Assembly (NCBI GenBank): GCA_051745165.1
Contig: JBNJDU010000003.1
Location: 8,127 to 72,126 of the forward strand
Reading direction: 5' to 3'
DNA: 64,000 nt
Source: Patescibacteria group bacterium
Lineage (GTDB): Bacteria > Patescibacteriota > Minisyncoccia > Minisyncoccales > PWPS01
The position numbers and the translations under genes are program-made. Positions 4,624-51,016 of this stretch are shown in pieces. The notes beneath the pieces are model-generated. The model did no database searches and was not told where the DNA came from. It saw nothing but the letters and a program-made list of their open reading frames with translations. The first letter of the stretch is position 1. Each line of letters starts with the position of its first letter.

Positions 4624-4634
4624 TTTAATTAATT

Positions 4635-7514: not shown

Positions 7515-8359
7515 GCTTGTTTAATTTTACTTTCTTTTTCGTTGAAAGTCAAATATTTTTTACTTATTTTTATCCAGTGATTTAAAGATAAATCTTCAGC
7601 TCTTTTTTTTGGATCAATATTAATACTGGTTAATATCTCTTTTACTTTTGGTTTTGAGAAATTTTCTAAATCAGCTAAGTTGTTTTTTAGTTGTTTTCTT
7701 GGGTGGCGGAAGCCTGATTCTACTACTTTGAAAAATAATTTAGAAAAATTTTCATTACGCGTGTATTTTAGATGAGGTGTTATTTTTAGAATTGCTCCAT
7801 TTACTTTAGGTGAGGGCCAAAAATAATTTTTAGAAATTTTCTTAATAAATTGTGGATCTCCTCTAAACTTAGTTATTATTGATAGAAAATTTTCTTTTTC
7901 TCCTTTGGACACTATTCTTTTTGCTACTTCCTCTTGAACTATAACTGATATTAATGTCGGGGGACTTTCTTTTAATAATTTTCTAATTATTGCTGTTGCT
8001 ATATTGAAGGGAAGATTAGCTACTACTTTATAATCTTTATTATTGTAAATTTTAGTTGGTAGTTTAAGAAAATCATCATTTATTATAGTTAGATTTTCTT
8101 TGTTTAAGGATTTAAGGTGCTTTATCATTCGAGAATCCTTTTCAACTACGGTTACCTGCTTTGCTTTTTTAGTTAACTCTTTAGTTAAAGCTCCTAATCC
8201 AGGGCCAATTTCTAATACATTGTCTGTTGATTGAATATCAACAGTTTTTATTAAGGTTGTTATTGTCTCTTTATCTATTAAAAAGTTTTGCCCTAATTTT
8301 TTTAAGGGTGCCTCCTCCTTTAATATAGATTTTATATTTTCTATTTTAGTTAAATCCAT
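7511..8359 (-). CDS. rsmA: 16S rRNA (adenine1518/1519-N6)-dimethyltransferase RsmA/KsgA
   Basis: LGQNFLIDKE, VLEIGPGLGALT and NLPFNIATAII motifs. I place the start at ATG 8359 (MDLTKIENIK). The TTG at 8428 in the ORF track would run through a strong opposite-strand promoter. Confidence 0.9.
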   Translation of the reverse strand: MDLTKIENIKSILKEEAPLKKLGQNFLIDKETITTLIKTVDIQSTDNVLEIGPGLGALTKELTKKAKQVTVVEKDSRMIKHLKSLNKENLTIINDDFLKLPTKIYNNKDYKVVANLPFNIATAIIRKLLKESPPTLISVIVQEEVAKRIVSKGEKENFLSIITKFRGDPQFIKKISKNYFWPSPKVNGAILKITPHLKYTRNENFSKLFFKVVESGFRHPRKQLKNNLADLENFSKPKVKEILTSINIDPKKRAEDLSLNHWIKISKKYLTFNEKESKIKQA

Positions 8360-9601: not shown

Positions 9602-9949
9602 ATGATAAAATTAAGCAATATGCCAGAAAAAGAACCAACAATTGAGCACGAACCAAATCCGGAAAAGAAAAGAGAAATTCCGGAAGCCGAACAAAATTTT
9701 TCTGAAAAACAAGAGGAAACTTTTGACATTCCAGAAGAAGGTAAGAAAGAAATTAGAAGAAAAAAAGAAGAAGAAAAAGAAAAACAAGAAGCTTATAAAG
9801 AGGAAATAGAGGAATTGGTAGCATTAGCAAAGGAAAAAGGATTTTCTAAAGCTTATAAAAAAGCTAAAAAGTTAAGTAATAAAAACAACGATTCAATAAT
9901 AATTGATCGGTTTCATGACCGTTTATCTCAAGAAGATTTAAATGACTAA
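9602..9949 (+). CDS. Small Lys/Glu-rich hypothetical protein (115 aa)
   Basis: ORF overlaps the start of the downstream ATPase gene by 8 nt. Low-complexity K/E-rich composition with no recognisable domain. Confidence 0.5.
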   Translation: MIKLSNMPEKEPTIEHEPNPEKKREIPEAEQNFSEKQEETFDIPEEGKKEIRRKKEEEKEKQEAYKEEIEELVALAKEKGFSKAYKKAKKLSNKNNDSIIIDRFHDRLSQEDLND

Positions 9950-15700: not shown

Positions 15701-17545
15701 CGTTGAAGCTTCAGCTTCTTTTTCTTCAATTTCTTCTTTTTCTTCTTCTATCTCCTCTTCCCTTTTCTTTAAAAGATTTAATTTCTTATTTAAGTGGTTA
15801 ATTTTTTCTCTCTTTTCAGCTCTTTTTTCAGCTAAGCTTCTCTTTTCTTCTTTTATCGAGTTAAATTCCTTTTTAAGTGTTTCTTTTTCTTCTTCTATCT
15901 CTTCCTTTTCTTTTTCTTTCTTTAAATTATTAACTTTTTCTTTTAAATTCTCCTCCTCACTGATTATATCTTGATATTTGCTTTCAACTTTTCTTTTCCT
16001 TTGCCTTATTCGGTTTAATTTTTCTTCTACACTCCATTCTTTTTCCTCCCACTTTCTTCTCTTTTGTTCAATTTCCCATCTTTCTTTTTCTATTTGTCTT
16101 TTTTCCTCTGGATCTTCAACTAATTTTTCCTTTTCTTCCATCTCTTTCTCTTCAGTCTTTATTTCTTCTAGTGTTTTAATTACATCCTCTAAAGAGCTTT
16201 TAGCTCTTTTCTCTTTTTGCAGTAAACCTTCTTTTTCTACTTCTAGTGTTTTCTTTTCTTTAATTAACTCTTGTATATCGTCCTCTAATTTTTCAATTTC
16301 ACCTTCTGGAGCTAGTGCGTCTTCTTTATGGTCAGTTTTTCTTTCCTCTTTCTTCTTCTGAGATTTTTCTTCTTCACTTCTAAGATCATCAAGCTTAAGC
16401 TCTAATTGAGATTTAACTTCTCTTAAATGAGCTATTTCAGTATTTATTTCTTCTAAATCTTTTTCTAAATCTTTTACTTTTCTCTCTTTTTCCCACCTTC
16501 TATTTTCAACTTCCCTTCTTTCATCTTCTAGTTTCCATCTTTGTTCCTTTAATTCTCTTTGTTTTTTCGGTTCTTTTTCAACATCTTCTTCTTTCTCAAT
16601 CTCTTCTTCTCTTTCTTCAATCTCCTTTTCTTCCTTTATGATCATTTCTAACTCCTCTTCAAGCTGAGTTTTTTGTCCAGAAAGATCAGTTTTTTCTTTT
16701 TTTGTTTTTTGAAGTTTAGAATTTATTTCAGAAAGTTTTTCTTCTAATTTATCTTTATTGTTTGCTATTTTTCCTATACTTCCTGATCTTGCTCTTTTCT
16801 TTTTTAGCTCTCTTTCTTCTCTTTCTGATTTTTTATATTCTCTATCTTTTTGCCTGATTTCTCTTTTCACATCTGATATTTTTTCTTCTAAATCCCACCT
16901 CTTTTCTTCTTGCTCTTTTCTTTCGTCTTCTAAATCCCACCTTTTCTTCTGAAGTTCTCTACGCTTTGAAGAAGTGTTTGCATTTTCAAGTTCTTTTTCA
17001 AGCTCTTTCTTTTTCTTCTCTATACTTTTTTCTTTTTCGATTACTGAGTTTAAATCATTCTCCAGAGAATCTTTTTTTTCTATTAGTTCTTTTTCTTCTT
17101 TTTTTAATTTTTGTTGAAATTCTGGCTTATCAGCTAATTCTTCTTCTGCTTCCTTTCTCTCCTTTTCTTCCTTTCTCTCCTTTTCTTCCTTTATTTCTTC
17201 TCTTAAAGCTTCTTTTTCTTCTTTAAGCTCTTCTTTTTTAGCTTCTATCTTTTCTTTTTCTTTTGGTAGGTTTTTAAGTTCATCTTCCCACTCCCATAGC
17301 TCATCTTCTAGAGCGGCAATTTTATCTTCTAACTTCCACCTTTTTTTCATTATCTCTTCATCCTCTCCTTCTTCCTCCAAGCTGTTTTGTTCTTCTTCAG
17401 CTTTCTTTAGTTTATTTTTTATTTTTTCAATAGATTCTTTTAGCTGCTCTTCTTTTTTGGAGAGTTGTTTTTTTTCTACATTAAGCCCTTCAATCTTTTC
17501 TTCAATTTTCTGAGCTTTCTCTTTTAGTTGTTTAGTGTTTGACAT
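12701..17545 (-). CDS. Giant bitopic protein (1614 aa): ~800-aa repetitive coiled coil, disordered K/E/P-rich linker, one TM helix, extracellular region with SH3b-like domain, acidic tail
   Basis: Long uninterrupted ORF. TM IARIGVVGVAALLLFGVVMGITSFF at about aa 1040-1065, preceded by KPKKPTNKSK (positive-inside). SH3b-like GLNVRAGSSVNEEQIDTV...NGWFEIRIDEETTGWVSSNF at about aa 1443-1492. Confidence 0.85.
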   Translation of the reverse strand: MSNTKQLKEKAQKIEEKIEGLNVEKKQLSKKEEQLKESIEKIKNKLKKAEEEQNSLEEEGEDEEIMKKRWKLEDKIAALEDELWEWEDELKNLPKEKEKIEAKKEELKEEKEALREEIKEEKERKEEKERKEAEEELADKPEFQQKLKKEEKELIEKKDSLENDLNSVIEKEKSIEKKKKELEKELENANTSSKRRELQKKRWDLEDERKEQEEKRWDLEEKISDVKREIRQKDREYKKSEREERELKKKRARSGSIGKIANNKDKLEEKLSEINSKLQKTKKEKTDLSGQKTQLEEELEMIIKEEKEIEEREEEIEKEEDVEKEPKKQRELKEQRWKLEDERREVENRRWEKERKVKDLEKDLEEINTEIAHLREVKSQLELKLDDLRSEEEKSQKKKEERKTDHKEDALAPEGEIEKLEDDIQELIKEKKTLEVEKEGLLQKEKRAKSSLEDVIKTLEEIKTEEKEMEEKEKLVEDPEEKRQIEKERWEIEQKRRKWEEKEWSVEEKLNRIRQRKRKVESKYQDIISEEENLKEKVNNLKKEKEKEEIEEEKETLKKEFNSIKEEKRSLAEKRAEKREKINHLNKKLNLLKKREEEIEEEKEEIEEKEAEASTPEEKRAIESRRWRVEERRKEAEEERWEVEEEIEKLKEQESKIELRYQQVLNKEKNLKDKIESLDKSKSQIEAKREKQELKEELSRFSELRKTIEEKTSELDKREDEINTRLNEIEKRENEIEEKGKEIEREEKLAEEPNKKREVEEKRWDAEEERRKIEKERWELEKELEEIKNKREELQLIARREDEIKGELEDVNFAIEEGKSKEDFQREEKEREEKIKKEKQQRRKGPQSNRSSVNKTDKNEGDDDQKKKKEDSDKKEEKPQSKEDSNNNDGVGGEENKVEEEEEKEREEFLKRLEEKVEGKTQEESPQKDKASQKKEPKSLGGLETKEDTPNKDKGDSKPTPPKNLANELNKDLNQDTQKEDTKEEEDSAFERPIGASSGPGNNKKAAPSSPPTPPSDSDEKGSPDITEDKPKKPTNKSKMIARIGVVGVAALLLFGVVMGITSFFGPESEDTQPDPEIFGVEVEQTEGYEYEMEVQFDGEFSDFNWSLTTEIEEGEVEELENLNGETVSYSFPPELTGSEIEAQVEGVDNAGNTIDESKTTFEIEEVLTVRTLFPTNENDEVREFSTANLDEVPIFLNSRLENAEGSTFNELIILNQSENPRRVMHLNEFFNALRISPPTGHFLDLLKDEFTLFVHSGEQNTLGFIGEIEEGGLADFRDMGISPWEESMVQDFSNFLQLHNYNTEDIDSEQKTTEYKDYEVSHFTHHPNEATLEENIQSWIESNIPTYTNKEGSNLTHVETNEEPDGAIMRFEFETEDSGYSDLESEEGPTSHNLALTVDTENNEVTEAITNDEFNELEGKFIEGDTETEEVVVISNSVGEEGLNVRAGSSVNEEQIDTVDAGTEHEFLNEENGWFEIRIDEETTGWVSSNFSEKGEKEIETNPEEGEAVDNTTYEEMSEEIDFGIYYTIIDNRFALTASMEAMEEIIDRIDNNPDIEESEPNIEESESSEDLENNQTEEDQQNEKEESNQDETTENSEEEAPQEEQEEEESAN
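15214..17341 (-). repeat. Six protein-level modules (~133-153 aa period), each with a paired motif (K/R)RW..E..R(R/K)...E..(R/E)W..E
   Basis: First Trp of each pair at aa 70, 203, 337, 490, 627 and 764. The second Trp follows 14 aa later in five modules and 14-16 aa later in the first module. Confidence 0.8.
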
Positions 17546-18013: not shown

Positions 18014-20096
18014 CCCTCCTTTTTTTAAGTTCTTTTTTTGCTTTTATTAATGATAAATCTATTTTTCCGTCATTAGCGACTTTAAGAACCTTTACTGGAA
18101 TTACATCTCCAACACTAACAACATCTTCTACTTTATCTACATGACCGTCTGATAGCTCTGAAATGTGAACTAAACCTTCTGTTCCGGGCATTATTTCTAC
18201 GAAACAACCAAAGTTCATAATCTTTTTAACCTTACCCTTAAACATTTCTCCCTTTTCTGGTTCTCTGACGATATTTTTAATCCACTCGTATGCTTTTTCA
18301 GCTGATTGCTTATCTTCAGAAGTGATAAAGATATCACCAGAATCTTCAATATCAATTGAAACTTCTGTTTCGTCAATTATTTCATTGATAACTTTTCCGC
18401 CTGGCCCGATAACTTCTCTTATCTTATCTTTATCAATCTTCATGGTTAATATTCTTGGAGCGTAAGGGGAGAGTTCTTCTCTTGGGCCTTCAATAGCTTC
18501 TTCCATTTTGTCTAAAATAGTGTGTCTAGTTTTTTCTGCTCTTTCTAGAGCTTCTTCCATAATATCAATAGTAATTCCTAAAACTTTAACATCCATTTGA
18601 ATGGCATTAACTCCATTTCTGGTACCCGCTACTTTAAAGTCCATATCTCCAGCATGATCTTCTAAGCCTTGAATGTCTGTAAGTAGGCGGTAATCATCAT
18701 CACTAGAAACCATTCCGATTGATATTCCAGTTACAGGAGCTTTTATTGGGACTCCGGCGTCCATTAAAGCTAAAGAAGTACTAGTCATTGCTGCTTGAGA
18801 AGTTGATCCATTAGAAGACATTATTTCTGAAACGGATCTAATAGTATAAGGAAAGTCATCAATGTCAGGGAGAACAGGTCTTATAGCCTTTTCTCCAAGC
18901 ATTCCATGTCCAATCTCCCTTCTTTTTGGTCCTCGAAGAGGCCATGTTTCTCCTACTGAGTAAGGAGGAAAGTTATAGTGATGCATAAACCTCTTTTTTC
19001 CTTCCGCTTCCATATTGTCGAAAAGTTTCTTATCTCCGGGAGGACCAAGTGTAATTATTGATAACGACCTTGTTTTTCCTCTTGAAAATAGTCCAGTGCC
19101 GTGAGTTCTAGGTAGTAATTTTACTTCTGTGCTTAATTCTCTTACTTCATCTTCTTTACGGCCGTCCGGTCGCTTATTATTTTTAAGTATATTTTTACGA
19201 ACTAATTCTTTTTTAAAGTCATCTAGATAATCTATTGCTTTTTCAGCATTCTCTTCGAATTTGTCTTTAATCTCTTTTTTAATCTCGTCTAGCTTTTCTT
19301 TATCATCTGCAAAGATTACTTTTTCAATTTCCTTTTCAAATTTTTCAACAAAATCTTTAATCTGTTTTGAAACCTCTTCTTCCTCTTCTAGTTTAATTTT
19401 TTCTTCACCGTGCTCTTCTATTATTTCTTGTTGAAACTTTTCTAATTTTTTAGTTGCTTTTTTTGCTAGTTTTACAGAGTTGATAACCTCTTCGTTAGGA
19501 GCTTCTTCAAAAAAACTTTCCACCATATTTACAATATATTTTCCATCGTTGAAGAAACCACTGTAAACAGCCTCTACATCACCTTCTTCTCTTTCATCGT
19601 AAGTTGGATTAAGAATAAGTTCACCGTCTTCTCTTCCCACTCTAACCATTGAAATTGGGCCGTTCCAAGGAACATCAGAAATTGATAAAGCTATAGAAGA
19701 GGCTATTCCTCCGAGAACTGCGGGGTCATTTTCTTCATCCCAAGAAAGACAGGTTACTATAACCTCCACTTCTTTTTTAAGATTTGCAGGAAAAAGAGGT
19801 CTTATTGATCTATCTATCATTCTAGAAATTAAAGTCGCTCTATCTGACGGCTTTCCTTCTCTTCTTGTGTATCTGGATCCACCAATCTTTCCGGCAGCGT
19901 AAAACTTTTCTTCATAAAAAACCATTAGAGGAAAGTAACCTAGTTCATCTTTTTTATCTTCATCAGACATAGTAACTGTTGCGAGAACAACAGTATCTCC
20001 ATATCTAAGCATAACACTTCCGTTAGCTTGTTCGGCTAGATTTTTAAAGCTAGCAGTTAATTTTCTTCCTCCAATTTGAATTTCATGTTTTTCCAT
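17997..20096 (-). CDS. pnp: Polyribonucleotide nucleotidyltransferase (PNPase)
   Basis: Two RNase PH-like domains plus KH and S1 domains. Contains DHAGDMDFKVAGT, GPGGKVINEI, GCFVEIMPGTEGLVHISEL. Confidence 0.97.
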   Translation of the reverse strand: MEKHEIQIGGRKLTASFKNLAEQANGSVMLRYGDTVVLATVTMSDEDKKDELGYFPLMVFYEEKFYAAGKIGGSRYTRREGKPSDRATLISRMIDRSIRPLFPANLKKEVEVIVTCLSWDEENDPAVLGGIASSIALSISDVPWNGPISMVRVGREDGELILNPTYDEREEGDVEAVYSGFFNDGKYIVNMVESFFEEAPNEEVINSVKLAKKATKKLEKFQQEIIEEHGEEKIKLEEEEEVSKQIKDFVEKFEKEIEKVIFADDKEKLDEIKKEIKDKFEENAEKAIDYLDDFKKELVRKNILKNNKRPDGRKEDEVRELSTEVKLLPRTHGTGLFSRGKTRSLSIITLGPPGDKKLFDNMEAEGKKRFMHHYNFPPYSVGETWPLRGPKRREIGHGMLGEKAIRPVLPDIDDFPYTIRSVSEIMSSNGSTSQAAMTSTSLALMDAGVPIKAPVTGISIGMVSSDDDYRLLTDIQGLEDHAGDMDFKVAGTRNGVNAIQMDVKVLGITIDIMEEALERAEKTRHTILDKMEEAIEGPREELSPYAPRILTMKIDKDKIREVIGPGGKVINEIIDETEVSIDIEDSGDIFITSEDKQSAEKAYEWIKNIVREPEKGEMFKGKVKKIMNFGCFVEIMPGTEGLVHISELSDGHVDKVEDVVSVGDVIPVKVLKVANDGKIDLSLIKAKKELKKRRDAKNK

Positions 20097-20097
20097 C

Positions 20098-20601
20098 TTA
20101 TTTCTTGAGTAAATATTTTTTAGGATTGTCTTCTAAATTCATAAATTCGTCGGCAGCTTCAATTAATCTCGATGATGCTGATCGCTTAAAGGCTACTATT
20201 TCAACTCGTATCCCTTTGTTTTGTAGAAAACCTACTAATGGAACAAAGTCACCATCTCCGGTTACTAGCACTATTGAGTCAGCAGAATTAGAAAGTCTAA
20301 TAGCATCAACTACTATACCAACATCCCAGTCTCCCTTTTTAAATCCGCCTTGATATTCTTGCAGGTCTTTTATTCTGGTTTCAATTCCTAAACTTGTCAG
20401 TGCATCAAAAAAGGATTTTTCCTCTCCACCTTTTGTTCTGATTACATAGGCAAAAGAACGTATTAAAGTTCTTTTGCTTACACCAAGATTTAAAACTTGT
20501 TTAAAGTCGACTCGTGATTTATATAAGTGTTTTGCAGAATGATAAAGATTCTGCACGTCCATTAAGACGACCACTCTTTGTCCTTTATGTTTAATAGTCA
20601 T
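20098..20601 (-). CDS. NYN-domain (LabA-like, PIN-related) protein
   Basis: VVVLMDVQNLYHSAK ... VLVTGDGDFVPLV ... VEIVAF pattern typical of NYN/LabA domains. Confidence 0.8.
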   Translation of the reverse strand: MTIKHKGQRVVVLMDVQNLYHSAKHLYKSRVDFKQVLNLGVSKRTLIRSFAYVIRTKGGEEKSFFDALTSLGIETRIKDLQEYQGGFKKGDWDVGIVVDAIRLSNSADSIVLVTGDGDFVPLVGFLQNKGIRVEIVAFKRSASSRLIEAADEFMNLEDNPKKYLLKK

Positions 20602-20874
20602 TTATTTTTTAAGACCAGCCTTCTTGATAATATCTTTGTATTTTTCTTCGTCTTCTTTCTTTAGATATTTAAGAAGTTTTTTTCTTTTGTTGACCATTCC
20701 CACTAATCCTTTTCTAGAATGTTTATCTTTTGGGTGGTCTTCTAAGTGACTGAAAAGGTTATTTATCTCTTCAGTTAAGATCGCGATTTGAGCTTCGGGT
20801 GATCCGGTGTTTTCCGTATCTAATCCGTACTCTTCGAGTATTTCTGTTTTGTTCAATTCGTTTTGTTTAGACAT
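20602..20874 (-). CDS. rpsO: 30S ribosomal protein S15
   Basis: GSPEAQIAILTEEINNLFSHLEDHPKDKHSRKGL. Confidence 0.95.
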   Translation of the reverse strand: MSKQNELNKTEILEEYGLDTENTGSPEAQIAILTEEINNLFSHLEDHPKDKHSRKGLVGMVNKRKKLLKYLKKEDEEKYKDIIKKAGLKK

Positions 20875-20933
20875 TTTTTTATTACTTTACTTTAATTAAC
20901 TATACTACATGCTCTTAAATTTTTAAACCGTTG

Positions 20934-21006
20934 TGCCCTCGCTAGGGATCGAACCTAGAACCTTGTCCTTAAGAGGGACCTGCTCTCCCAGTTGAGCTAC
21001 GAGGGC
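20934..21006 (-). tRNA. tRNA-Lys (anticodon CTT), no encoded CCA
   Basis: Cloverleaf read by eye: acceptor GCCCTCG/CGAGGGC, D arm GCTC..GAGC, anticodon loop CTCTTAA, T arm CTAGG-TTCGATC-CCTAG. Confidence 0.88.
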
Positions 21007-21014
21007 GTTTTCAA

Positions 21015-21671
21015 TTAATCTTCACTAGGCAATTCCATATCTGAAGGTCTTTCTATCTCTACTTCACACATTGGTTGAGTTTTAATTCCTTCGCTTCCCC
21101 ACTCAATTTCCCAATCCATAAATCCAGAAATTATAAGTGTTATTATAGCCCAGGAAAAGTAAGCTAAAAATAATCCTAAAGCTGCATATTTTAAAGCATC
21201 TATAGCTTTATTAGTTTTCTCTGGATTTCCAGTAGAAACAATCATTGTCACTCCGGCACCTACTATTACTATAAGGGCTATAGCAGGAATTAAGCCTCCT
21301 AAAACAAAACTTATTACCCTGTCAAATATCATAAAAAGATGACAAAGACTACAAGGGACAAATGTTTCGGGAGAAGAACCACCTTTTCCAAGTGCTTCTG
21401 ATGAGCAGCGATGTATTTCATCTAACTCTTTACTAAAGAAGTTTTGAATATCTCCGCTACTTGATTCTACAGAAAGACACCTTCCGCAAGGAACCATTCC
21501 ATCATATTCTACTTCTAAAGATCCACTTATTGGATCTCCTTGTTGGTCTTCACCTATTACATTTATGTTGTAAGTTTCAGACTCTTGATATTCTTCTGCC
21601 TCGTCTGCCTCCGATATTTGCGGAACAAATATAATGAAAGCAGCTAAAATTAGGATAATAAACTTCTTCAT
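21015..21671 (-). CDS. Secreted/membrane protein resembling TrbC/VirB2-type (T4SS-pilin-like) proteins, with an extra N-terminal Cys-containing domain
   Basis: Signal peptide MKKFIILILAAFIIFVPQISEA. CxxC pairs. Two C-terminal TM helices separated by STGNPEKTNKAIDALKYA, a layout I associate with T4SS pilin-like families. Confidence 0.55.
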   Translation of the reverse strand: MKKFIILILAAFIIFVPQISEADEAEEYQESETYNINVIGEDQQGDPISGSLEVEYDGMVPCGRCLSVESSSGDIQNFFSKELDEIHRCSSEALGKGGSSPETFVPCSLCHLFMIFDRVISFVLGGLIPAIALIVIVGAGVTMIVSTGNPEKTNKAIDALKYAALGLFLAYFSWAIITLIISGFMDWEIEWGSEGIKTQPMCEVEIERPSDMELPSED

Positions 21672-21714
21672 TGAAAACTATTATAAGATAAAAATCTTTT
21701 TTAATAAAGCTTTG

Positions 21715-21788
21715 TACCTCCGGAAGGATTCGAACCCTCAACCTTCCGGTCCGAAGCCGGACGCTCTATCCAGTTGAGCTACGGAGGT
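21715..21788 (-). tRNA. tRNA-Arg (anticodon TCG), no encoded CCA
   Basis: Acceptor ACCTCCG/CGGAGGT, anticodon stem-loop TCCGG-CTTCGGA-CCGGA, T arm GAGGG-TTCGAAT-CCTTC. Confidence 0.88.
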
Positions 21789-21821
21789 TTTTGATTAGCT
21801 TATTTATTTTATCTAAAATAA

Positions 21822-21850
21822 TTGAAAAAAACAAGTTTTTAAGATAGAAT
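21822..21850 (+). promoter_or_regulatory. sigma70-like promoter for cca (TTGAAA-17-TAGAAT)
   Basis: Hexamers at 21822-21827 and 21845-21850. Confidence 0.6.
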
Positions 21851-21861
21851 GGGACAGACTT

Positions 21862-23313
21862 ATGAAAATACCACAAGAAATAAAAAAAATAACAGATAAA
21901 TTAGAAGATGCGGACTTCGAAGCCTTTGTTGTCGGAGGTTGTGTTCGAGATGGCTTATTAAATAAGAAGCCAAATGATTGGGATATAGCTACAAATGCAA
22001 CTCCAGAAGACGTAGAGTCAATTTTTAATAAAACCTATTCCAATAATAATTTTGGAACAGTTACCGTTTTGACAGAAAGTAACAAAGAAGGACTAAAAGA
22101 GGTAGAAATTACCCCTTACAGAACTGAAGAAAATTATAAGGACGGACGTCATCCAGAAAAAGTAGAGTGGGCGGAAACAATTGATGAAGATTTGTCCAGA
22201 AGAGACTTTACTATAAACGCCTTAGCTTATAGACCAGCAAAAGAAAAGCTAGTAGATCTTTTTAATGGAAAAGAAGATTTAGAAAAAGAAATTATTAGAG
22301 CAGTTGGAGATCCTTATGAGCGTTTTGATGAAGATAGTTTAAGAATGATGAGGGCAGCTAGATTTGCCACCACTTTAGAGTTTAAAATAGAAGAAGAAAC
22401 TAAAAGAGCAATAAAAGAAAAATCCTCCTTATTACAAAAAATTTCTAATGAAAGAATTAGGGAAGAATTATTAAAGATAGTAATGAGTGATAACGCAGCG
22501 ATTGGAATTGAGCTCTTGAGACGATTAGGACTTTTAAAGTATATTATTCCTGAACTAGAAGAAGGTTATCAAGTAGCACAAAATAAGCATCATATATATG
22601 ATTGTTATGAGCATTCCATTCTTTCACTGCAGTATGCTGCTGACCAGGATTATAATATGCATGTACGAATGGCAGCTTTACTTCATGACGTGGCAAAGCC
22701 AACCGTAAAAGAAGGAACAGGAGAAGAAGCTACTTTTTATAATCACGAAGTGGTAGGAGCAAAACAAGCAAAGAAAATTCTTAAGCGATTAAAATTTCCT
22801 AAAAAAGACATAAAGAAAATAGTTAAACTAGTTCGATATCATCTCTTCTATTATAATGTTGGAGAAGTTTCTGAATCTTCAGTTAGGAGATTAGTTAGAA
22901 ATGTAGGGAAAGAAAATATAGATGATCTTATTAAGGTAAGAAAAGCGGATAGAATTGGTTCTGGAGTCCCAAAAGCAGAGCCATATAAGCTAAGACATCT
23001 TCAATACGTAATAGAGAAAGTGTCTCGAGATCCAATATCTACTAAAATGTTAGAAGTTGACGGTGAGGATGTTATGGAGATTTTAGGAATATCTCCCGGT
23101 CCTAAAATTGGTGACATCTTAAACATCCTCCTCAGCAAGGTTTTATCAGATCCAAGTAAAAATAAAAAAGATGCCTTGGTTAAAGAAATCAAGAAATTGG
23201 GTGAAATGAATGACGAAGAATTAAAAAAGCTCGCCGAAGCGAGCCGAGATGATATTGATCGAATTGAAACTAAACGAGATAAAATGACTAAGAAGAAGTA
23301 TTGGTTAACTTAG
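21862..23313 (+). CDS. cca: CCA-adding tRNA nucleotidyltransferase with HD domain
   Basis: GGCVRDGLL..DWDIAT nucleotidyltransferase motif, RRDFTINA, and HD region LLHDVAKP. Confidence 0.9.
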   Translation: MKIPQEIKKITDKLEDADFEAFVVGGCVRDGLLNKKPNDWDIATNATPEDVESIFNKTYSNNNFGTVTVLTESNKEGLKEVEITPYRTEENYKDGRHPEKVEWAETIDEDLSRRDFTINALAYRPAKEKLVDLFNGKEDLEKEIIRAVGDPYERFDEDSLRMMRAARFATTLEFKIEEETKRAIKEKSSLLQKISNERIREELLKIVMSDNAAIGIELLRRLGLLKYIIPELEEGYQVAQNKHHIYDCYEHSILSLQYAADQDYNMHVRMAALLHDVAKPTVKEGTGEEATFYNHEVVGAKQAKKILKRLKFPKKDIKKIVKLVRYHLFYYNVGEVSESSVRRLVRNVGKENIDDLIKVRKADRIGSGVPKAEPYKLRHLQYVIEKVSRDPISTKMLEVDGEDVMEILGISPGPKIGDILNILLSKVLSDPSKNKKDALVKEIKKLGEMNDEELKKLAEASRDDIDRIETKRDKMTKKKYWLT

Positions 23314-27898: not shown

Positions 27899-28154
27899 GC
27901 GCTCGATACCCTCTTTGAAGAACCACTCCTCAAGAATCGCCAGCGGCGATTCGGAAGTTGTATGCTCGCTGATTTATTTTGGCAAAGCCAAAAACCATGC
28001 TAAATCAGCTCCGCAAACTTCTTCAAAAAGAGTATCTTCGCTTCGGGTTGTGAAATTCCTCTGCGAGGGCTTCTTTGAGGAGATGTTCTCGCTTGTGGAA
28101 TAAAACTTTGCTCAATCAACTCAGCGAACTTCTTCAAAGAGGGTATCTTCGCTT
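27899..28154. repeat. Nested-hairpin element, copy A (left arm, 2 hairpins, 3 right-arm copies)
   Basis: Left arm GCGCTCGATACCCTCTTTGAAGAA at 27899-27922. Hairpin GAATCGCC-AGC-GGCGATTC at 27934-27952. Hairpin GCTGATTTA...TAAATCAGC at 27969-28009 with inner TTTTGGC-AAA-GCCAAAA. Right arms at 28019-28043, 28071-28094 and 28130-28154. Confidence 0.85.
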
Positions 28155-28203
28155 ACGATTAAAAACAAAATTTTTTGCAAAGGCTTTTTATTTAACCATA
28201 AAC

Positions 28204-34250: not shown

Positions 34251-35189
34251 ATGATTATAGTCTTACACGGAAAAGACAATTTCAGAACTGATCAGAAGCT
34301 GAAAAGTATAATTTCTGGATACAAAAAGAAAAATAAATCAGGTATAAATATTACTTATTTACCTGACTCCCCTTCTTTTAATGATTTAAAGGACGAGAGT
34401 AGACAATTAGGGATGTTTGAAGAAAAAAGGTTGCTTATAGGAAGGAATGTTTTACAAGATAAAAATCTTAAGAAGAAAATTGAAAAAAACTTAGAAGAGT
34501 TAGTTAAAGGTGATAATATCTTAATTCTCAAGGAGAATAATAAAATAAAAGGTAAATTTGGGAAGAAGATAGAAAGTCTTGATAAATCAAAAGGAATGAT
34601 TCAGGAATTTGAAGAGTTAAAAGGAAGAAAATTAAAATCTTGGTATAAAAAAGAATTTTCTAAGTATAATACTAAATTGGAAAGAGGGGTTGTATCTAAA
34701 CTTATTAATTATGTTGGAAATGACTTATGGCGGGCAAGTAATGAGATTTCTAAATTGGCTAATATGAAATTAAATGAAGAGGTAAGCGTGAATGATGTTT
34801 CTAAGCATGTCCGACCAGATTTCAACACAGATATATTTGAAACAATTGATTCACTTGGTAAAGGTAACAAAGGTAAAGCGATTGAGCTTGTTCAAGAACA
34901 TATTAGAAAAGGAGACTCTCCTTTCTATATTCTTTCAATGATAAATTATCAGGTTAGAAATTTACTAACTGTAAAAGAGTTGGAGGAAGATGGTTTATCT
35001 TATAAAAAAGCAAAAAAAGAAAGTAAAATGAGCCCTTTTGTTTTTAAAAAAACAAAAGCTCAAGCAAAAAACTTTACTTTTGATCAAACTAAAAAAATCC
35101 ACCGTGAATTATTCAGGGTGGATTTAGATTCTAAACTAGGAAAAATAACTCCGCAAATCGGATTAATGTTAATTATTTCTCGTTTTTAG
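34251..35189 (+). CDS. holA: DNA polymerase III delta subunit
   Basis: Size and pattern (IIVLHGKDNFRTDQKL ..., LWRASNEISKL, ...FVFKK...) are typical of HolA. Assigned from family recognition only. Confidence 0.7.
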   Translation: MIIVLHGKDNFRTDQKLKSIISGYKKKNKSGINITYLPDSPSFNDLKDESRQLGMFEEKRLLIGRNVLQDKNLKKKIEKNLEELVKGDNILILKENNKIKGKFGKKIESLDKSKGMIQEFEELKGRKLKSWYKKEFSKYNTKLERGVVSKLINYVGNDLWRASNEISKLANMKLNEEVSVNDVSKHVRPDFNTDIFETIDSLGKGNKGKAIELVQEHIRKGDSPFYILSMINYQVRNLLTVKELEEDGLSYKKAKKESKMSPFVFKKTKAQAKNFTFDQTKKIHRELFRVDLDSKLGKITPQIGLMLIISRF

Positions 35190-35445
35190 CCTTATTGATT
35201 AACTTTGTGAGGCGAGATTTTTTTCGGCTTGCATTCTTCTTCTTAATAACTCCCTTTTTAGCTGCTTTGTCTATAGCTTTGTACGTATCAGAAAGCTTTT
35301 CTTTTGCATCTTTAACTTCCCCCTCATCAACCAAGGTTCTAATTTCTTTAATTGCCTCTTTCATTTTGGTTTTAAAAACCTTGTTTTCTTTCTTTCTTTT
35401 TTTATTTTGTCTTAATCTTTTTTTTGCTGATTCAGATAACGGCAT
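35173..35445 (-). CDS. rpsT: 30S ribosomal protein S20
   Basis: SAKKRLRQNKKRKKENK...KAIDKAAKKGVIKKKNASRKKSRL. Confidence 0.93.
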   Translation of the reverse strand: MPLSESAKKRLRQNKKRKKENKVFKTKMKEAIKEIRTLVDEGEVKDAKEKLSDTYKAIDKAAKKGVIKKKNASRKKSRLTKLINKAKNEK

Positions 35446-35489: not shown

Positions 35490-35517
35490 ATTATACTTGA
35501 AAGTGACCATTAGTCAA
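35490..35517 (-). promoter_or_regulatory. sigma70-like promoter for rpsT (TTGACT-16-TATAAT)
   Basis: -35 at 35517-35512 and -10 at 35495-35490 on the minus strand. The -35 lies 2 nt from the left arm of repeat copy B. Confidence 0.65.
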
Positions 35518-35519
35518 AT

Positions 35520-35665
35520 GCGCTCGATACCTCTTTCATAAGAACCAGAACTCAAATCTTCCAGCGAAGATTTGGTTCTTGCGCTCTCGGTAGCTCATTT
35601 TCAGCAAGCTAAAAAACCTTGCTGAGCTACCTCCGAGAGCTTCTTTGAAAGGGGTATCTTCGCTT
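35520..35665. repeat. Nested-hairpin element, copy B
   Basis: Left arm GCGCTCGATACCTCTTTCATAAGAA at 35520-35544. Hairpin AAATCTTC-CAGC-GAAGATTT at 35554-35573 inside AAGAACC/GGTTCTT. Hairpin GCTCTCGGTAGCTCA...TGAGCTACCTCCGAGAGC at 35583-35640 with inner AGCAAG/CTTGCT. Right arm TTCTTTGAAAGGGGTATCTTCGCTT at 35641-35665. Confidence 0.85.
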
Positions 35666-35676
35666 CAACCTCACTA

Positions 35677-35714
35677 GTCATTCTGAGGCCGGAGCCCGAA
35701 GAATCTCTTCGTAA
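35677..35714. repeat. Short repeat family 2 (GTCATTCTGAG..N..GAAGAATCTCTTCGTAA), copy 1
   Basis: Matches 49994-50029 and partially 50051-50071. Confidence 0.75.
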
Positions 35715-35786
35715 ATAGTAAAACTTAACAGCAGTTTTAACTACTCCCCTTTTTTTATTAATTTTATTTACTATAATTAATTCACT

Positions 35787-36335
35787 ATGATTTATTATTT
35801 AGACGGAAAAATAGCAATAAAAAAAGACGATTTTGTAGTAATAGATACTAATGGAGTGGGACGTAAAGCTTATATGTCTCCTGACGCAGTTAAAAACTTG
35901 CCACCAGTAGGAGAAAACTTTAAATTATTCTGCTACTTGAATATTGGTAGAAATTCAGAAAGACTTTATGGATTTCCGACCAAGGAAAACTTAGAATTCT
36001 TTGAAAGCCTTATTAATTTATCTGGAATCGGGCCAAAGACAGCAGTTCAAGTTGCCTCTATAGCTCCTATGGAAGAGATGAAAAAGGCAATTAAAAATGA
36101 CAATCAAGAAGTTTTGGATAAGATTTTTGATATTGGTAAGAAAAGAGGTCAACGGGTTATTTTTGAACTTTCTAGAAGAATTAAAGAAGCTCCTGAAGAA
36201 GATGGTGTTGTTCAAACTTTGGTTTCTCTAGGGTTTTCAAAAAAGGACGCTAGTGCAGCACTCAAAGGAGTGTCAAAAGATAAATCTGTTGATGAAAGAG
36301 TAAAAGAAGCCTTAAAACTTTTAGACAATGGTTAA
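35787..36335 (+). CDS. ruvA: Holliday junction DNA helicase subunit RuvA
   Basis: MIYYLDGKI..., LYGFPTKENLEFFESLINLSGIGPKTA (HhH). Confidence 0.88.
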   Translation: MIYYLDGKIAIKKDDFVVIDTNGVGRKAYMSPDAVKNLPPVGENFKLFCYLNIGRNSERLYGFPTKENLEFFESLINLSGIGPKTAVQVASIAPMEEMKKAIKNDNQEVLDKIFDIGKKRGQRVIFELSRRIKEAPEEDGVVQTLVSLGFSKKDASAALKGVSKDKSVDERVKEALKLLDNG

Positions 36336-39460: not shown

Positions 39461-41008
39461 TTAATTATTGAGTGATTTAATCATGTAAGTGTCTTTTAGT
39501 TTGTAGCCGTTTTTCCTCCAATAGCCTCTGGCTCCGACTCCAGAAATAACACTTATTTTATTTGTGGGTGCTAATTTTTCGGCCTCTTTCACTAATTTTT
39601 TTCCTAAACCTTTATGTTGAGGAGATGTTGCTAGTATTTCTCCGTTTTTGATCATTGTTTGCTGTCCATAAGTATGAATTTCACGAATAATCGTGCTATT
39701 TTCCAGTACTTCGGGATAAGGATCTTTAGGGATTCTCATTCTTAACAGGCTGAACAATTTAGTTCTTTCTTTATTTTCAAAAGTTAAAACAATCTCTTTT
39801 CCTTCAGAGGCTTTATATTCTTTTTTAAAGAGGCGCAAATCTTCGTTTGGATCGTAATTGTCTTTTACTTCTCTACATCTAATACAATTACACCTCCACC
39901 CTTCTCGTTTAGCTTTTTTTGATAGTTTTTCTCTTAAATTTGAAGATCCTCCCCCAGCAACAACACTTTGGGCTGGTATATCTCTAATTACCCTTTGAAT
40001 CCTAACCCAGTAAGGAATAATTTCTTTTTTAATTTTACTTAAAAGCTTAATTAGCTCTTCCTCATTGTAAGGAGCGTAATCTCCACTTTTATAAAGATCA
40101 TAAAGAGGAGCTTCTTTTAAGACCATGCAGGGATATACTTTTAAAAAGTCAGGTTTGAATCTTTGATCTTGAAAAAGAATTTTGAACATTTCAAGATCCC
40201 TTTCAAAAGTTGACCCGGGAAGATCCGGCATTACTTGATAGCAAACCTTAAAGCCGGCGTCTTTTAATTTCTTAGTCGCCTCTACGGTTTCTTTTACGCC
40301 GTGTCCTCTTTTGTTTTTCTTTAAAACATCTTCATACACACTTTGAACTCCAATTTCAACCATGGTAATTCCTAATTTACGGAGATGTTTTATTTCTTCC
40401 TTATCGATGTAGTCTGGCCTGGTTTCAATTGATAAGGTGACCATTTTGTGATCCGCAGTTTCATTTTCCTTTTGAGCTTGTTTTAGAGTATCTGCTTCTT
40501 TTTCATTTAAAGCTTCGAAGCATGGTTTAACAAACTCTTCTCTGTATTCTTTACTATAATAAGACCAAGTTTCTCCAACTATTCTAACTTCAACCTTATC
40601 AGTTGGATGACCGGTTTTAGTCAAAGATGTTATTCTATTTTGAACTTGTTTTTTAGGATCAAAGTGATTTAGTTTTGCTCGCATTACAGCTGGTTCATTA
40701 TCTAAGTAACTCTTTGGAGCACCTTCTTGAGCTGGGCAATAGATGCATTCCCCCGGGCAAGCGTGAGATTTAGTTAGTACAGAAACGTTCACCACGCCGG
40801 ATAAAGAGCGAACCGGCCTAAGTCTTAAAGCGGCTTCCAGCCTTTTATCTTTAACATTCATATTTCGGTAAACCTCAATTAAATCCACATTTGGTGGACA
40901 ATTTGTTTTATATTTTTTACAAACATCCCGCTTAGTTTGATCAACTATTTCTCGAGATATTTTATCTTTTTTTAGTAGTTCTTCTACTATTTCTTTTTCT
41001 AAAGACAT
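39461..41008 (-). CDS. elp3: Elp3-type radical SAM + GNAT enzyme (tRNA U34 cm5 modification family)
   Basis: Radical SAM cluster motif CPGECIYCP, the central Elp3-like TIM region, and a C-terminal GNAT (HKGLGKKLVKEAEKLA). 515 aa. Confidence 0.88.
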   Translation of the reverse strand: MSLEKEIVEELLKKDKISREIVDQTKRDVCKKYKTNCPPNVDLIEVYRNMNVKDKRLEAALRLRPVRSLSGVVNVSVLTKSHACPGECIYCPAQEGAPKSYLDNEPAVMRAKLNHFDPKKQVQNRITSLTKTGHPTDKVEVRIVGETWSYYSKEYREEFVKPCFEALNEKEADTLKQAQKENETADHKMVTLSIETRPDYIDKEEIKHLRKLGITMVEIGVQSVYEDVLKKNKRGHGVKETVEATKKLKDAGFKVCYQVMPDLPGSTFERDLEMFKILFQDQRFKPDFLKVYPCMVLKEAPLYDLYKSGDYAPYNEEELIKLLSKIKKEIIPYWVRIQRVIRDIPAQSVVAGGGSSNLREKLSKKAKREGWRCNCIRCREVKDNYDPNEDLRLFKKEYKASEGKEIVLTFENKERTKLFSLLRMRIPKDPYPEVLENSTIIREIHTYGQQTMIKNGEILATSPQHKGLGKKLVKEAEKLAPTNKISVISGVGARGYWRKNGYKLKDTYMIKSLNN

Positions 41009-48641: not shown

Positions 48642-48692
48642 ATACTTTTAATCGAAAGGTTTGCTTTCGAATTTACTTAAACTTTTAAAGTG

Positions 48693-49046
48693 TGGAGATG
48701 GGGAGGTGTGACCCCCCGTCCGAAAATCCCTCCAAAATGAATCTACAAGCTTAGCCCGGTTTTTTCTCGACCGAAGCCTTGTACCGGACGAAGCTACTCC
48801 GGTCAAAGGTCTTTTAGCGTTCGCAAGGTCTGAGACCAACAAACCTTGTATAACCCGAATTTATGGTACTTTTACCACCCATCGGGTGTCAGTGGTAAAA
48901 GCAAGCTGTTACGCTACTGCTGGTGCAGGAGCGAAAGCTAAACTATCTTGTAAGTTGGCACTTACTAGATTTGGCAAGATTTACGAGATTTGCCAACTCG
49001 GCTTGCTACATTTTGAAGGTGATTCTCGTCTAGTCAACTCACCCCC
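48693..49046 (-). ncRNA. ssrA: tmRNA (SsrA)
   Basis: 5' GGGGGTGAGTTGACTAGACGAG pairs with 3' ...CCCCATCTCCA to give a tRNA-like acceptor with a G3-U pair. T-arm-like GGACGGGGGGTCACACCTCCCC. Internal tag frame GCC AAC TTA CAA GAT AGT TTA GCT TTC GCT CCT GCA CCA GCA GTA GCG TAA. Lies next to smpB. Confidence 0.85.
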
Positions 49047-49514: not shown

Positions 49515-49550
49515 ATCTTTATATTAACAGAAAATATCTTAACAATAAAT

Positions 49551-49758
49551 ACGCTCGATACCCTCTTTTGAAGAATCAGACCTCAAAAGTCACCAGCGTG
49601 ACTTGGGTCTTCTTCGCTCACCGATTCATTTCAGCAAAGCTGAAAACCGGCTGAATCGGTTCCGCGGAGTTCTTCAAAGAGGGTATCTTCGCTTTGGGTT
49701 ACGAAAAGACCATGCAAAATCCTCTCCGAGAACTTTTTCAAAGAGGGTATCTTCGCTT
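49551..49758. repeat. Nested-hairpin element, copy C (left arm, 2 hairpins, 2 right arms)
   Basis: Left arm ACGCTCGATACCCTCTTTTGAAGAA at 49551-49575. Hairpin AGTCAC-CAGC-GTGACT at 49588-49603 inside AGACC/GGTCT. Hairpin ACCGATTCA...TGAATCGGT at 49620-49660 with inner TTCAGC-AAA-GCTGAA. Right arms at 49670-49694 and 49734-49758. Confidence 0.85.
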
Positions 49759-49800
49759 CTAATTTTGACTATTAACTATATACTTTTGACTGTTAACCAA

Positions 49801-49993: not shown

Positions 49994-50071
49994 GTCATTC
50001 TGAGCCGTAGGCGAAGAATCTCTTTGTAATAATGCTCAATTTTCAACTACAGCCGAAGAATCTCTTCGTAA
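49994..50071. repeat. Short repeat family 2, copies 2 and 3 (GTCATTCTGAGCCGTAGGCGAAGAATCTCTTTGTAA; AGCCGAAGAATCTCTTCGTAA)
   Basis: 49994-50029 and 50051-50071 match 35677-35714. Confidence 0.75.
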
Positions 50072-50174: not shown

Positions 50175-50993
50175 ATGAAAAAAATTATTTCTTTAGGTTT
50201 AATTTTTGTTTTTGCTTTTGGGTTGATTGGTTTTACTGCAGCAAATACACCGGAAGTAGGAAATGAAGATTTAGAAGATTCTGTGAAAACTACTGGTTTG
50301 GAAAATGCGGAAAGTAGAATAAATAGAGTTATGGAAAAAATTGAGGCAATGAATATTGAAGGAGTTAACCTTAAAGGGTTAGAAAATGCTTTAAGAAATA
50401 TTATTAAAAATCAAGGAGAAGATAAAGAGTGTTTAGAAGTTGTAAGTGGGTTAGAATTTGAAGACGAAGGAGAAGATGTTGAAGTTTTAAGAGAAGTTTT
50501 AGAAGAATTGGATTATTATGATGATGATTTTGAAGATGAAGGAAGTGATGAGTACGGATGGGGAATTGCTAAAGCTGTATATGATTATCAACAAGATAAT
50601 GATATAGAAACTGATAGTGATATGGAGAGGTTAGGTTTTAAGTTGAGTGAAGAGACAAGAGAAGGTTTGAATGAGGATTACGAATGTGAAGATGAGGAAG
50701 ACGAAGAAGAGGAAGAAGAAGATGAGGAAGACGAAGATGATGAGGATTTGAATGAAAAATGTGAGGTTGACGATCAATGTGAGTGGGTTTCTACAAATTG
50801 TTGCCCAGAAAATGCAGGTGCTAACTGGGAATGCCTTAACTCAGAAGAGGTAGATTTAGAATGTGAAGGAGACGAAATGTGTCCTCAAGTGATAAGTCCA
50901 AAACCATCTACTCCTTGTGAATGTGAAGATGAAGAGTGTGAAGCAGAAGAGGAAGAAGACGAAGATAATGAGGAAGAAGAAGAGGAAGAGTAA
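50175..50993 (+). CDS. Secreted, extremely acidic protein with a putative peptidoglycan-binding-like segment and a Cys-rich C-terminal module
   Basis: Signal peptide MKKIISLGLIFVFAFGLIGFTAA. Poly-D/E runs. GWGIAKAVYDYQQDNDIETD resembles the PG_binding_1 core. 12 Cys in the last ~90 aa. Confidence 0.7.
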   Translation: MKKIISLGLIFVFAFGLIGFTAANTPEVGNEDLEDSVKTTGLENAESRINRVMEKIEAMNIEGVNLKGLENALRNIIKNQGEDKECLEVVSGLEFEDEGEDVEVLREVLEELDYYDDDFEDEGSDEYGWGIAKAVYDYQQDNDIETDSDMERLGFKLSEETREGLNEDYECEDEEDEEEEEEDEEDEDDEDLNEKCEVDDQCEWVSTNCCPENAGANWECLNSEEVDLECEGDEMCPQVISPKPSTPCECEDEECEAEEEEDEDNEEEEEEE

Positions 50994-51016
50994 TAACTAT
51001 TTAAGAAAAGTAAGTT

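Follow-up and report, generated by a model that had tools for sequence, protein, structure and literature searches.

Patescibacteria have tiny, gene-dense genomes that are usually thought to be poor in repetitive or selfish DNA. REPs are single hairpins of 20-40 nt with a GTAG head, known to occur near stop codons and to influence how stable an mRNA is or how it is translated; REPINs consist of two inverted REPs, and the HUH transposases called RAYTs mobilize them. Classical MITEs (miniature inverted-repeat transposable elements) have sequence-conserved terminal inverted repeats (TIRs) matching the transposase of an insertion sequence (IS), together with target-site duplications (TSDs). BOX termini are similar to the ISSpn2 inverted repeats. 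In Streptococcus pneumoniae and S. suis, BOX elements (boxA-boxB(n)-boxC) vary in module number, form several subfamilies per genome and are co-transcribed with their neighbours (PMC3049150). They are modular, their terminal modules pair, and in strain ATCC 700669 they supply the stop codon of 36 coding sequences (CDSs) (PMC3049150). Here we analyzed a 64,000-nt stretch of DNA from a Patescibacteria group bacterium, hereafter the window, and in it a 146-nt element, copy B (window 35520-35665), located between the divergent genes rpsT and ruvA. Sequence comparison indicated that copy B is a member of a previously undescribed family of ~150-nt non-coding interspersed repeats in a soda-lake clade of Patescibacteria. 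These repeats are probably non-autonomous and structure-dependent, and among known elements they are most like the pneumococcal BOX elements.

Structure and family of copy B

Copy B was predicted to form a three-way junction, in which a left and a right arm pair with each other (closing helix P1) and enclose two hairpins. The initial annotation of the window had described one left arm, two hairpins and one right arm, and the sequence is as described. The parts of copy B were as follows.

35520-35544, plus strand: left arm, 5' strand of P1, GCGCTCGATACCTCTTTCATAAGAA
35547-35579, plus strand: hairpin 1 (P2), 14 pairs, loop CCAGCG
35583-35640, plus strand: hairpin 2 (P3), a 15-pair outer stem and an inner 5-pair hairpin
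35641-35663, plus strand: right arm, 3' strand of P1, followed by CTT (35641-35666 with the family-conserved end) and ending in GGTATCTTCGCTT

P1 starts with the GCG of the left arm paired to the right-arm CGC; a CTC/TT internal loop and then an 18-bp helix follow. The GCG of the hairpin-1 loop and its closing C are conserved in the family and were invariant in an 11-sequence alignment (A2). Hairpin 2 contains an unpaired AAAACCTTGC stretch, and a conserved unpaired AAAACCNTGC stretch lies on the 3' side of P3. The minimum free energy of copy B as RNA was -66.6 kcal/mol, compared with -33.4 ± 4.1 kcal/mol for 200 shuffled sequences (z = -8.0), none of which folded as well. Folding was equally good for the reverse strand (z = -7.1) and for single-stranded DNA (z = -8.4). 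Copy B keeps 52 of the 53 pairs of the family and is thus intact. No open reading frame (ORF) was found inside the element.

Two other copies were present in the window.

27899-28155, plus strand: copy A, a full element (27899-28044) and two 5'-truncated 3' fragments with right arms ending at ~28095 and ~28155
49552-49759, plus strand: copy C, a full element (49552-49695) and one 5'-truncated 3' fragment (~49700-49759)

Copy A, with one left and three right arms, begins 2 nt downstream of the TAA that ends a ZIP transporter gene, and copy C, with one left and two right arms, lies upstream of smpB (minus strand) and adjoins the transfer-messenger RNA (tmRNA) gene. The three copies are co-oriented (plus) at a density of about one per 20 kb. 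Hairpin 2 spans 58 nt with 20 pairs in copy B, 59 nt with 21 pairs in copy A and 58 nt with 22 pairs in copy C; the earlier statement that the hairpin of copy B is the longest of the three was therefore incorrect.

Thirteen further full copies were found in related Patescibacteria contigs, and also one in a metagenome-assembled genome (MAG) of Sungiibacteriota (L021). In a pattern scan covering one genome per species, 44 matches came up, compared with about 34 expected by chance, and only those in L007, L029, L028 and L021 were real. A pattern scan of metagenomes contributed five soda-lake contigs, and a scan of viral contigs with the arm pattern gave no match. A covariance model was built from 11 copies, and the pattern scans together with the loci syntenic by RuvA yielded 16 full-length copies. 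In the alignment of these 16 copies, 93.3% of the pair cells held standard pairs, and changes on both sides were observed at 44 of the 53 pairs. None of 500 shuffles reached these values of pairing and double change, and sliding the partners gave only 38-51% pairing. Model fitting of the 16-copy alignment favoured the structure somewhat.

In the core of P1 (helix 2, P1 spanning helices 1-3), double changes occurred in 10 of 12 pairs across the 16 copies. The whole of P1 differed in sequence in subtype 3 (GGGTTGGGGTTTGAAAGAA / TTCTTTCAACCCCAATCCC) with pairing retained, and arms were replaced wholesale between subtypes (GATACCCTCTTTGAAGAA versus GGGTTGGGGTTTGAAAGAA). The fixed motifs were mostly unpaired, namely GCGCTCG at the 5' end, CNGCG in the hairpin-1 loop, AAACCNTGC in the hairpin-2 bulge and YTCGCTTAYGGNTAAAA at the 3' end. 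Three subtypes occurred together in one MAG (GCA_964399315.1). The L021 copy showed the same architecture (74 bits, z = -3.8). Two candidates were removed from the family: L012 from Uhrbacteria, where tandem units lie by a tyrosine recombinase gene and a tRNA gene (12.6 bits, z = -0.03), and L041, a chance match.

A search of the window against Rfam 15 at gathering thresholds detected only the tmRNA and four tRNAs. With E-values of up to 10, the copy B region gave only noise (at most 18.6 bits), and with E-values of up to 0.5 nothing overlapped the copies in L047, L049, L021 or L050. Full-text literature searches for Patescibacteria or candidate phyla radiation (CPR) repeats and for the arm sequences returned no description of the element.

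Turnover of the copies

Among the 807 pair cells of the 16-copy alignment, 23 were G-U and 26 were A-C mismatches. Because G-U was not above A-C, wobble pairs mark neither strand as RNA, and an assignment of the strand from them was abandoned as uninformative. Copies at the same site in close relatives were then compared pair by pair, as listed below.

L028 and L048, leuS site: 4 broken pairs, 1 compensated
HD-gene site (site 2), first pair of copies: 6 broken pairs, 2 compensated
HD-gene site (site 2), second pair of copies: 11 broken pairs, 5 compensated

In the HD-gene-site copies of L053 and L050, pairing had fallen to 36-38 of the 53 pairs. The site-1 copy of L050 was only 58% identical to copy B despite the closest RuvA (91% identity), and shared ~91-94% identity with a copy that lies elsewhere in the genome of another organism (L051). 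Between subtype-1 copies from four non-orthologous loci, identity was 90-97%. As judged from these comparisons, the pattern is that of a birth-and-death repeat, whose structure would be selected at propagation and whose resident copies decay, recombine or get replaced.

Positions of the copies and a possible role in 3' untranslated regions

The motif GCGCTCG at the 5' end of the element starts 2 nt past the stop codon of a co-oriented gene at the ZIP transporter gene (copy A), mreB, gatC, leuS and two other genes. The L021 copy follows a TGA stop codon with a slightly longer gap. Other copies immediately follow an intrinsic terminator's T-run, behind rpsI (L007) and an HD-domain gene (L050, L051 and L053), and copies B and C lie between divergent genes, copy C upstream of smpB. 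All copies share the orientation of the local gene majority. The 5 nt to the left of the element read TAA[G/A/T]T or AAAT at 10 of 12 independent loci. A co-oriented stop codon was found 2 nt before the element at 7 of 11 independent loci, compared with an expected 5.9% (binomial P ~7e-7); this expectation is the share of non-disruptive [TC]AANT sites in the window that are stop codons, a crude estimate from our own ORF calls in one genome. The excess could result from selection, because in a dense genome 150 nt can be added at such a position without separating a gene from its signals, or from a mechanistic or functional link. We also considered that the element supplies the stop codon by truncating genes. 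This is unlikely, since the C-termini of the orthologous LeuRS proteins of L028 and L048 (…KLVNFVT) are near-identical and, going by usual LeuRS ends, appear complete.

The 5'-truncated fragments, which keep the 3' end, trail full copies: two after copy A, one after copy C, and three in each of L047 and L049. Right-arm (3') modules number one to four per copy, with the extra modules downstream of the full copy. Copies that are 3'-truncated or chimeric were rarer (L029, L052 and the second L050 copy). A canonical terminator follows the repeat array in L047 and L048, so that the copies at stop codons are presumably co-transcribed with the upstream gene.

These positions raise the alternative that the element is a cis-acting RNA with a function for the host. 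It would be transcribed at the start of the 3' untranslated region (UTR), upstream of the terminator, and its three-way junction would shield mRNA 3' ends from exonucleases, guide processing or influence terminating ribosomes, as is reported for REPs near stop codons; copy B would be a misplaced or secondary copy. The excess of stop codons and the co-transcription indicated by the L047 and L048 terminators are consistent with such an RNA, as are the invariant unpaired nucleotides, the strong covariation and the retention of the fold in the distant L021. PNPase and RNase Y are encoded in the window, so that a machinery for 3'-end decay exists. However, the numbers of G-U and A-C cells show no bias toward wobble pairs, and uncompensated mismatches accumulate in close copies at the same site. 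Copies also lie where there is no 3' UTR, either after terminators (site 2 and the second L007 copy) or between divergent promoters (copies B and C), and close relatives lack copies at the 3' ends of the same genes or at the same sites. The element has no U-tract and matches no known RNA family. We therefore regard a 3'-UTR function as unlikely, although it fares better than the other alternatives considered below.

The rpsT-ruvA site in related genomes

The genes and promoter sequences around copy B were as follows.

35173-35445, minus strand: rpsT, ribosomal protein S20 (Pfam PF01649, E = 1e-24), transcribed away from copy B
35490-35517, minus strand: rpsT promoter TTGACT-16-TATAAT, 11 of 12 consensus positions, outside copy B
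35772-35777, plus strand: ruvA -10 TATAAT, 9 nt before the ATG and ~105 nt downstream of copy B
35787-36335, plus strand: ruvA, encoding RuvA (Pfam)

The initial annotation was confirmed at this site in several respects. Pfam agreed with rpsT and ruvA as the flanking genes, and the near-consensus minus-strand promoter of rpsT, with its 11 matching positions, is conserved in six related loci. The coordinates gave the reported gap of 2 nt between the rpsT -35 (ending at 35517) and the left arm (starting at 35520), so that copy B is not part of the rpsT 5' UTR but lies upstream of the core promoter of this gene. As a class, promoter-like sites were not enriched in the AT-rich stretch around copy B (2 found versus 1.5 expected).

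An exact-protein look-up had no record of the window RuvA, but the homologue search returned an identical NCBI protein from a 'Patescibacteria group bacterium'. Syntenic rpsT-ruvA loci were obtained through RuvA homologues, and are listed with their RuvA identity relative to the window.

Window (reference): subtype-1 element after AGTCAAAT
L046 (= L055), RuvA 81%: element of the same subtype as in the window, after AGTCAAAT
L050, RuvA 91%: element of subtype 3, after AGTCAAAT
L052, RuvA 85%: chimeric copy after AGTCAAAT, with a CCTGCC...GGCAGG palindrome replacing the interior and mismatching arms
L053, RuvA 81%: element absent
L056, RuvA 77%: element absent
L057, RuvA 53%: element absent, spacer only 77 nt
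L051 and L054, RuvA 90% and 81%: region rearranged

With its filters turned off, the covariance model scored at most 7 bits in L053 and L056, compared with 46-184 bits for the copies detected elsewhere. AGTCAAAT was common to the filled sites (window, L046, L050 and L052) and the empty sites (L053, L056 and L057). In all seven rpsT-ruvA loci the rpsT -35 TTGACT lies 16 nt from the -10, which is TATAAT in six and ATATAT in L057, and the ruvA -10 TATAAT lies 8-9 nt before the ATG with or without the element. The spacer of the element-free, ancestral site is 77-143 nt long. Since the promoters are complete in the loci without the element, the rpsT and ruvA promoters are self-sufficient, and the element was inserted into an ancestrally short spacer. 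No flank repeat was found at the right end when filled and empty sites were compared for a TSD. A TAA duplication was dismissed, since TAA(AA) is present on the right irrespective of the left flank and so belongs to the element. Half of what the initial annotation named as counter-evidence to its own reading was thus seen: related genomes show an insertion relative to an empty ancestral site, but no duplication.

The last bases of AGTCAAAT form the insertion-site motif, and its AAAT overlaps the rpsT -35 by two bases. The overlap of this motif with the promoter edge is enough to account for the adjacency of copy B and the promoter; copy B begins at the first position that leaves the -35 intact. 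We infer that copy B is a passenger between two self-sufficient divergent promoters and part of neither. By this comparison, its position beside the rpsT -35 follows from a harmless landing place and is not evidence of promoter control. The comparison does not support a regulation of rpsT or ruvA by copy B, although a modest effect on the expression of its neighbours may exist.

In the light of these loci, a role of copy B as a DNA-level insulator or modulator of the two divergent promoters, for example by protein binding or a cruciform beside the -35, is very improbable. This alternative can draw on the 2-nt distance of the left arm from the rpsT -35, on copy C, which appears to abut a weaker, hand-read candidate smpB promoter (TTGTTA-16-TATAAA), and on the strong DNA folding of the element. 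BOX, Correia and BIME repeats, moreover, can change the expression of neighbouring genes (PMC3049150), which also counts in its favour. Against it, both promoters are complete without the element (L053, L056 and L057) and with a different or chimeric copy (L050 and L052), the ancestral spacer of 77-143 nt is short, the AAAT motif at the promoter edge accounts for the adjacency, and most members of the family lie away from promoters. Of the insulator or modulator proposed in the initial annotation, the part that holds is that a repeated element is present and probably matters at the DNA level; a special link to the promoters, which are intact in L053, L056 and L057, is not supported.

Weakest of all is the other earlier proposal, an independently transcribed small RNA gene belonging to a multi-copy paralogous family, which the stable conserved fold, the conserved loops, the terminator-like hairpins 45-55 nt downstream of copies A and C and the GC-rich composition in an AT-rich genome would suit, but which is hardly credible because copies abutting stop codons have no space for a promoter, the best candidate promoter on the plus strand of copy B matches only 9 of 12 consensus positions and is not conserved, CGCTTCAACC follows the right arm without a T-run and the scan detected no plus-strand terminator at copy B, a G-U bias is absent, and truncated or chimeric copies and arrays of 3' fragments are atypical of such genes.

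Nature of the repeat and proposed mechanism

As a non-autonomous, BOX-like repeat, the element would spread or be replaced in a structure-dependent and orientation-specific manner. Its landing place would be directly 3' of the short motif (T/C)AANT, which is most often provided by a co-oriented gene ending in TAA, and copy B would have landed after AGTCAAAT, which overlaps the rpsT -35. Propagation would occur in trans, by an enzyme that reads the structure and not TIRs. An intact structure would be selected when copies propagate, and copies would later decay, recombine or be replaced. An HUH-type mechanism acting on single-stranded DNA hairpins, as in REP/RAYT and IS200/IS605, or gene conversion between copies would fit best. 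The former would explain why the 5' flank is fixed, why duplications are lacking, why empty sites are seamless and why there is a single orientation, and the latter could account for the swaps of subtype.

Several observations weigh against this reading. Pfam detected neither transposase nor integrase nor reverse-transcriptase domains in 50 ORFs of the window, a set that left out three short ORFs and the ORF at 39461-41008, which is syntenic with a radical-SAM/ELP3 gene, and the precomputed Pfam tables of the related 2-20-kb loci contained no transposase; a gene that could mobilize the element was thus found in neither. The adjacency to stop codons goes far beyond the prediction from the motif and could mean an RNA function in the 3' UTR. 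Selfish repeats at the species level do not usually have unpaired motifs conserved as far out as the Sungiibacteriota MAG. That four genomes share one insertion point could reflect a single old insertion with subsequent conversion and not repeated insertion. Furthermore, 7 compensated pairs but no broken pair separate copy B from the L046 copy at the corresponding position, which, taken alone, would suggest selection in place; given the decay and the subtype turnover elsewhere, descent from different source copies explains this contrast more economically.

A bolder form of the proposal, which we consider rather unlikely, is that the three-way junction and its invariant unpaired nucleotides are the substrate of a so far unknown, structure-guided and orientation-specific insertion machinery of Patescibacteria. 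It would insert the element, which has no inverted-repeat ends, exactly 2 nt past TAA stop codons with no duplication of the target, and would leave arrays of 5'-truncated copies with an A-rich 3' end. If true, the family would be a new class of non-autonomous element, HUH-type or even similar to retroposons and short interspersed nuclear elements (SINEs), and the position next to stop codons could additionally be co-opted to act on terminating ribosomes or mRNA 3' ends.

The stop-codon rule at the level of the family and the conserved unpaired motifs are the most noteworthy aspects of the repeat, and the rule, if mechanistic, would point to a new mode of targeting. For uncultured lineages, the family also provides a marker of how genomes have changed recently. 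It probably causes assembly breaks, as the L007 contig ends inside a copy, and is a source of spurious calls of small RNAs or regulatory elements.

Other repeats and features of the window

A second, unrelated short repeat 12 nt past copy B, reported in the initial annotation, is real and recurs once in the window.

35677-35705, plus strand: small hairpin repeat GTCATTCTGAGGCCGGAGCCCGAAGAATC (GTCATTCTGAGG...CGAAGAATC), 12 nt after copy B; second copy at 49994-50020

The family of this second repeat comprises hairpins of ~30-50 nt with the pattern GTCATTC(T/C)GAGG...(C)GAAGAATC and variants GTCATTCCCG...CGGGAATC, the stem of which would hold tandem G.A/A.G mismatches. Many copies were present in L029 (~6800-7560), L050 (3090-3400), L052 (9590-9760) and L053 (14420-14700), in the same spacers as the main element. 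At the rpsT-ruvA site, the second repeat was present in the window and L052 and absent in L046.

A perfect GC palindrome, CCTGCCTGCCGGCAGGCAGG, was found in L052 (9540-9565), L029 (~6975-7000), L050 (9270-9300) and the downstream arrays of L047, L048 and L028. It recurs alone, or inside or in place of the interior of the main element, giving chimeric copies, and possibly represents a third small repeat able to invade the element or recombine with it. A further small hairpin repeat, CCCC(C)ATTTACACC...GGTGTAAATGGGG, whose variants include TTACACCTCGGGGGTGTAAA, was located in L053 (9870-9915), L054 (9700-9740 and 9905-9945), L052 (9850-9900) and L028 (3530-3620). It occupies the rpsT-ruvA spacer of L053, where the main element is absent. 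Downstream of rpsI, in a contig of the same MAG, ~100 nt of the mreB 3' end are duplicated between two element copies (L007 160-245, minus strand, versus L029 7766-7870); either the element mediated a rearrangement here or the repeat gave rise to a chimera in the assembly.

Near copy B, the 3' ends of holA (DNA polymerase III delta, plus strand) and rpsT (minus strand) overlap by 17 nt (35173-35189), and the same convergent overlap was observed in L050, L052, L053, L055 and L056. Hexamers resembling a -10 lie very near two start codons: TATAAT 8-9 nt before the ATG of ruvA (window 35772-35786), kept in eight relatives, and TATAAA 3 nt before the ATG of smpB (49515-49550). These distances suggest that the ruvA and smpB mRNAs are leaderless or near-leaderless. 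The tmRNA gene (48690-49046, minus strand, 121 bits), directly downstream of smpB, was detected by Rfam and not by ARAGORN.

Gene orientation and GC skew flip at ~20000-22000 of the window, with the minimum of the cumulative skew near 20 kb. To the left of ~20 kb, genes are mostly on the minus strand and the skew is negative; to the right, they are mostly on the plus strand and the skew is positive. This flip could mark a replication origin or simply be an effect of gene strand; dnaA was not seen. Copies A, B and C all lie in the plus-skew part in plus orientation.

Three unusual coding regions (12701-17545, minus strand; 2875-7514, minus strand; 50650-51000, plus strand) account for most direct repeats in the window. 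The first encodes a 1614-aa protein consisting mostly of E/K-rich repeats with a 21-nt period and ending in a C-terminal SH3 domain, the second two large leucine-rich-repeat proteins, and the third the acidic D/E-rich tail of a protein with a peptidoglycan-binding domain. A TrwB/VirD4-like type IV coupling protein (9942-12347, plus strand) and a protein resembling a type IV secretion system (T4SS) pilin (21015-21671, minus strand) are encoded among housekeeping genes.

Comparison with known systems

Several described systems were set aside on their anatomy. The GUGCG of a group II intron 5' end is missing from some of the copies, and an intron of this kind would be much larger than 150 nt. The core motifs of hammerhead and other small ribozymes are absent and there was no Rfam match. 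Integron attC sites were rejected on the housekeeping neighbours and the lack of an R/L box pattern, and TIGR arrays on the lack of a regular array and of a Tas gene. CRISPR was likewise rejected on anatomy.

Classical MITEs (Correia, ERIC, RUP and bcr1) share with the element a length of ~100-160 nt, multiple intergenic copies, strong folding and, sometimes, a position by promoters. In contrast to them, the element has no sequence-conserved TIRs, and its arm sequence is swapped between subtypes.

Non-autonomous elements derived from IS200/IS605 (palindrome-associated transposable elements) show a likeness in the way of insertion. Insertion 3' of a short fixed target (10 of 12 loci), a single orientation, no TIRs or TSDs, seamless empty sites and a presumed dependence on DNA hairpins are common to both. 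The ends of IS200/IS605 carry separate subterminal hairpins that do not pair with each other, whereas here the ends pair mutually; by analogy, the end hairpins might correspond to P2 and P3. A TnpA gene was detected neither among the window ORFs scanned nor in the related 2-20-kb loci.

The family resembles REP, BIME and REPIN sequences as GC-rich extragenic palindromes after genes, whose structure is kept while the sequence drifts, with neither TIRs nor TSDs and with plausible recognition of a single-stranded DNA hairpin. The Pfam results for the window ORFs scanned and the related loci contained no RAYT gene. The element differs from REPs in being a three-way junction of 146-150 nt, in lacking a GTAG head and in its other conserved motifs.

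The closest likeness is to BOX. A relationship in sequence is not expected. The terminal motifs of the element, GCGCTCG and YTCGCTTAYGG, differ from the BOX termini in not being inverted repeats of each other, and the arms covary and are not conserved. The variable part also differs, consisting of 5'-truncated 3' fragments downstream of the full copy and not of internal boxB modules. Nevertheless, both are small, non-coding, multi-copy and intergenic, with paired 5' and 3' terminal modules around internal stem-loops in all full copies, and both are often located at the extreme 3' end of a CDS, where they supply or abut the stop codon, with several subfamilies in one genome. The likeness is one of architecture and position, in a host of a different phylum.

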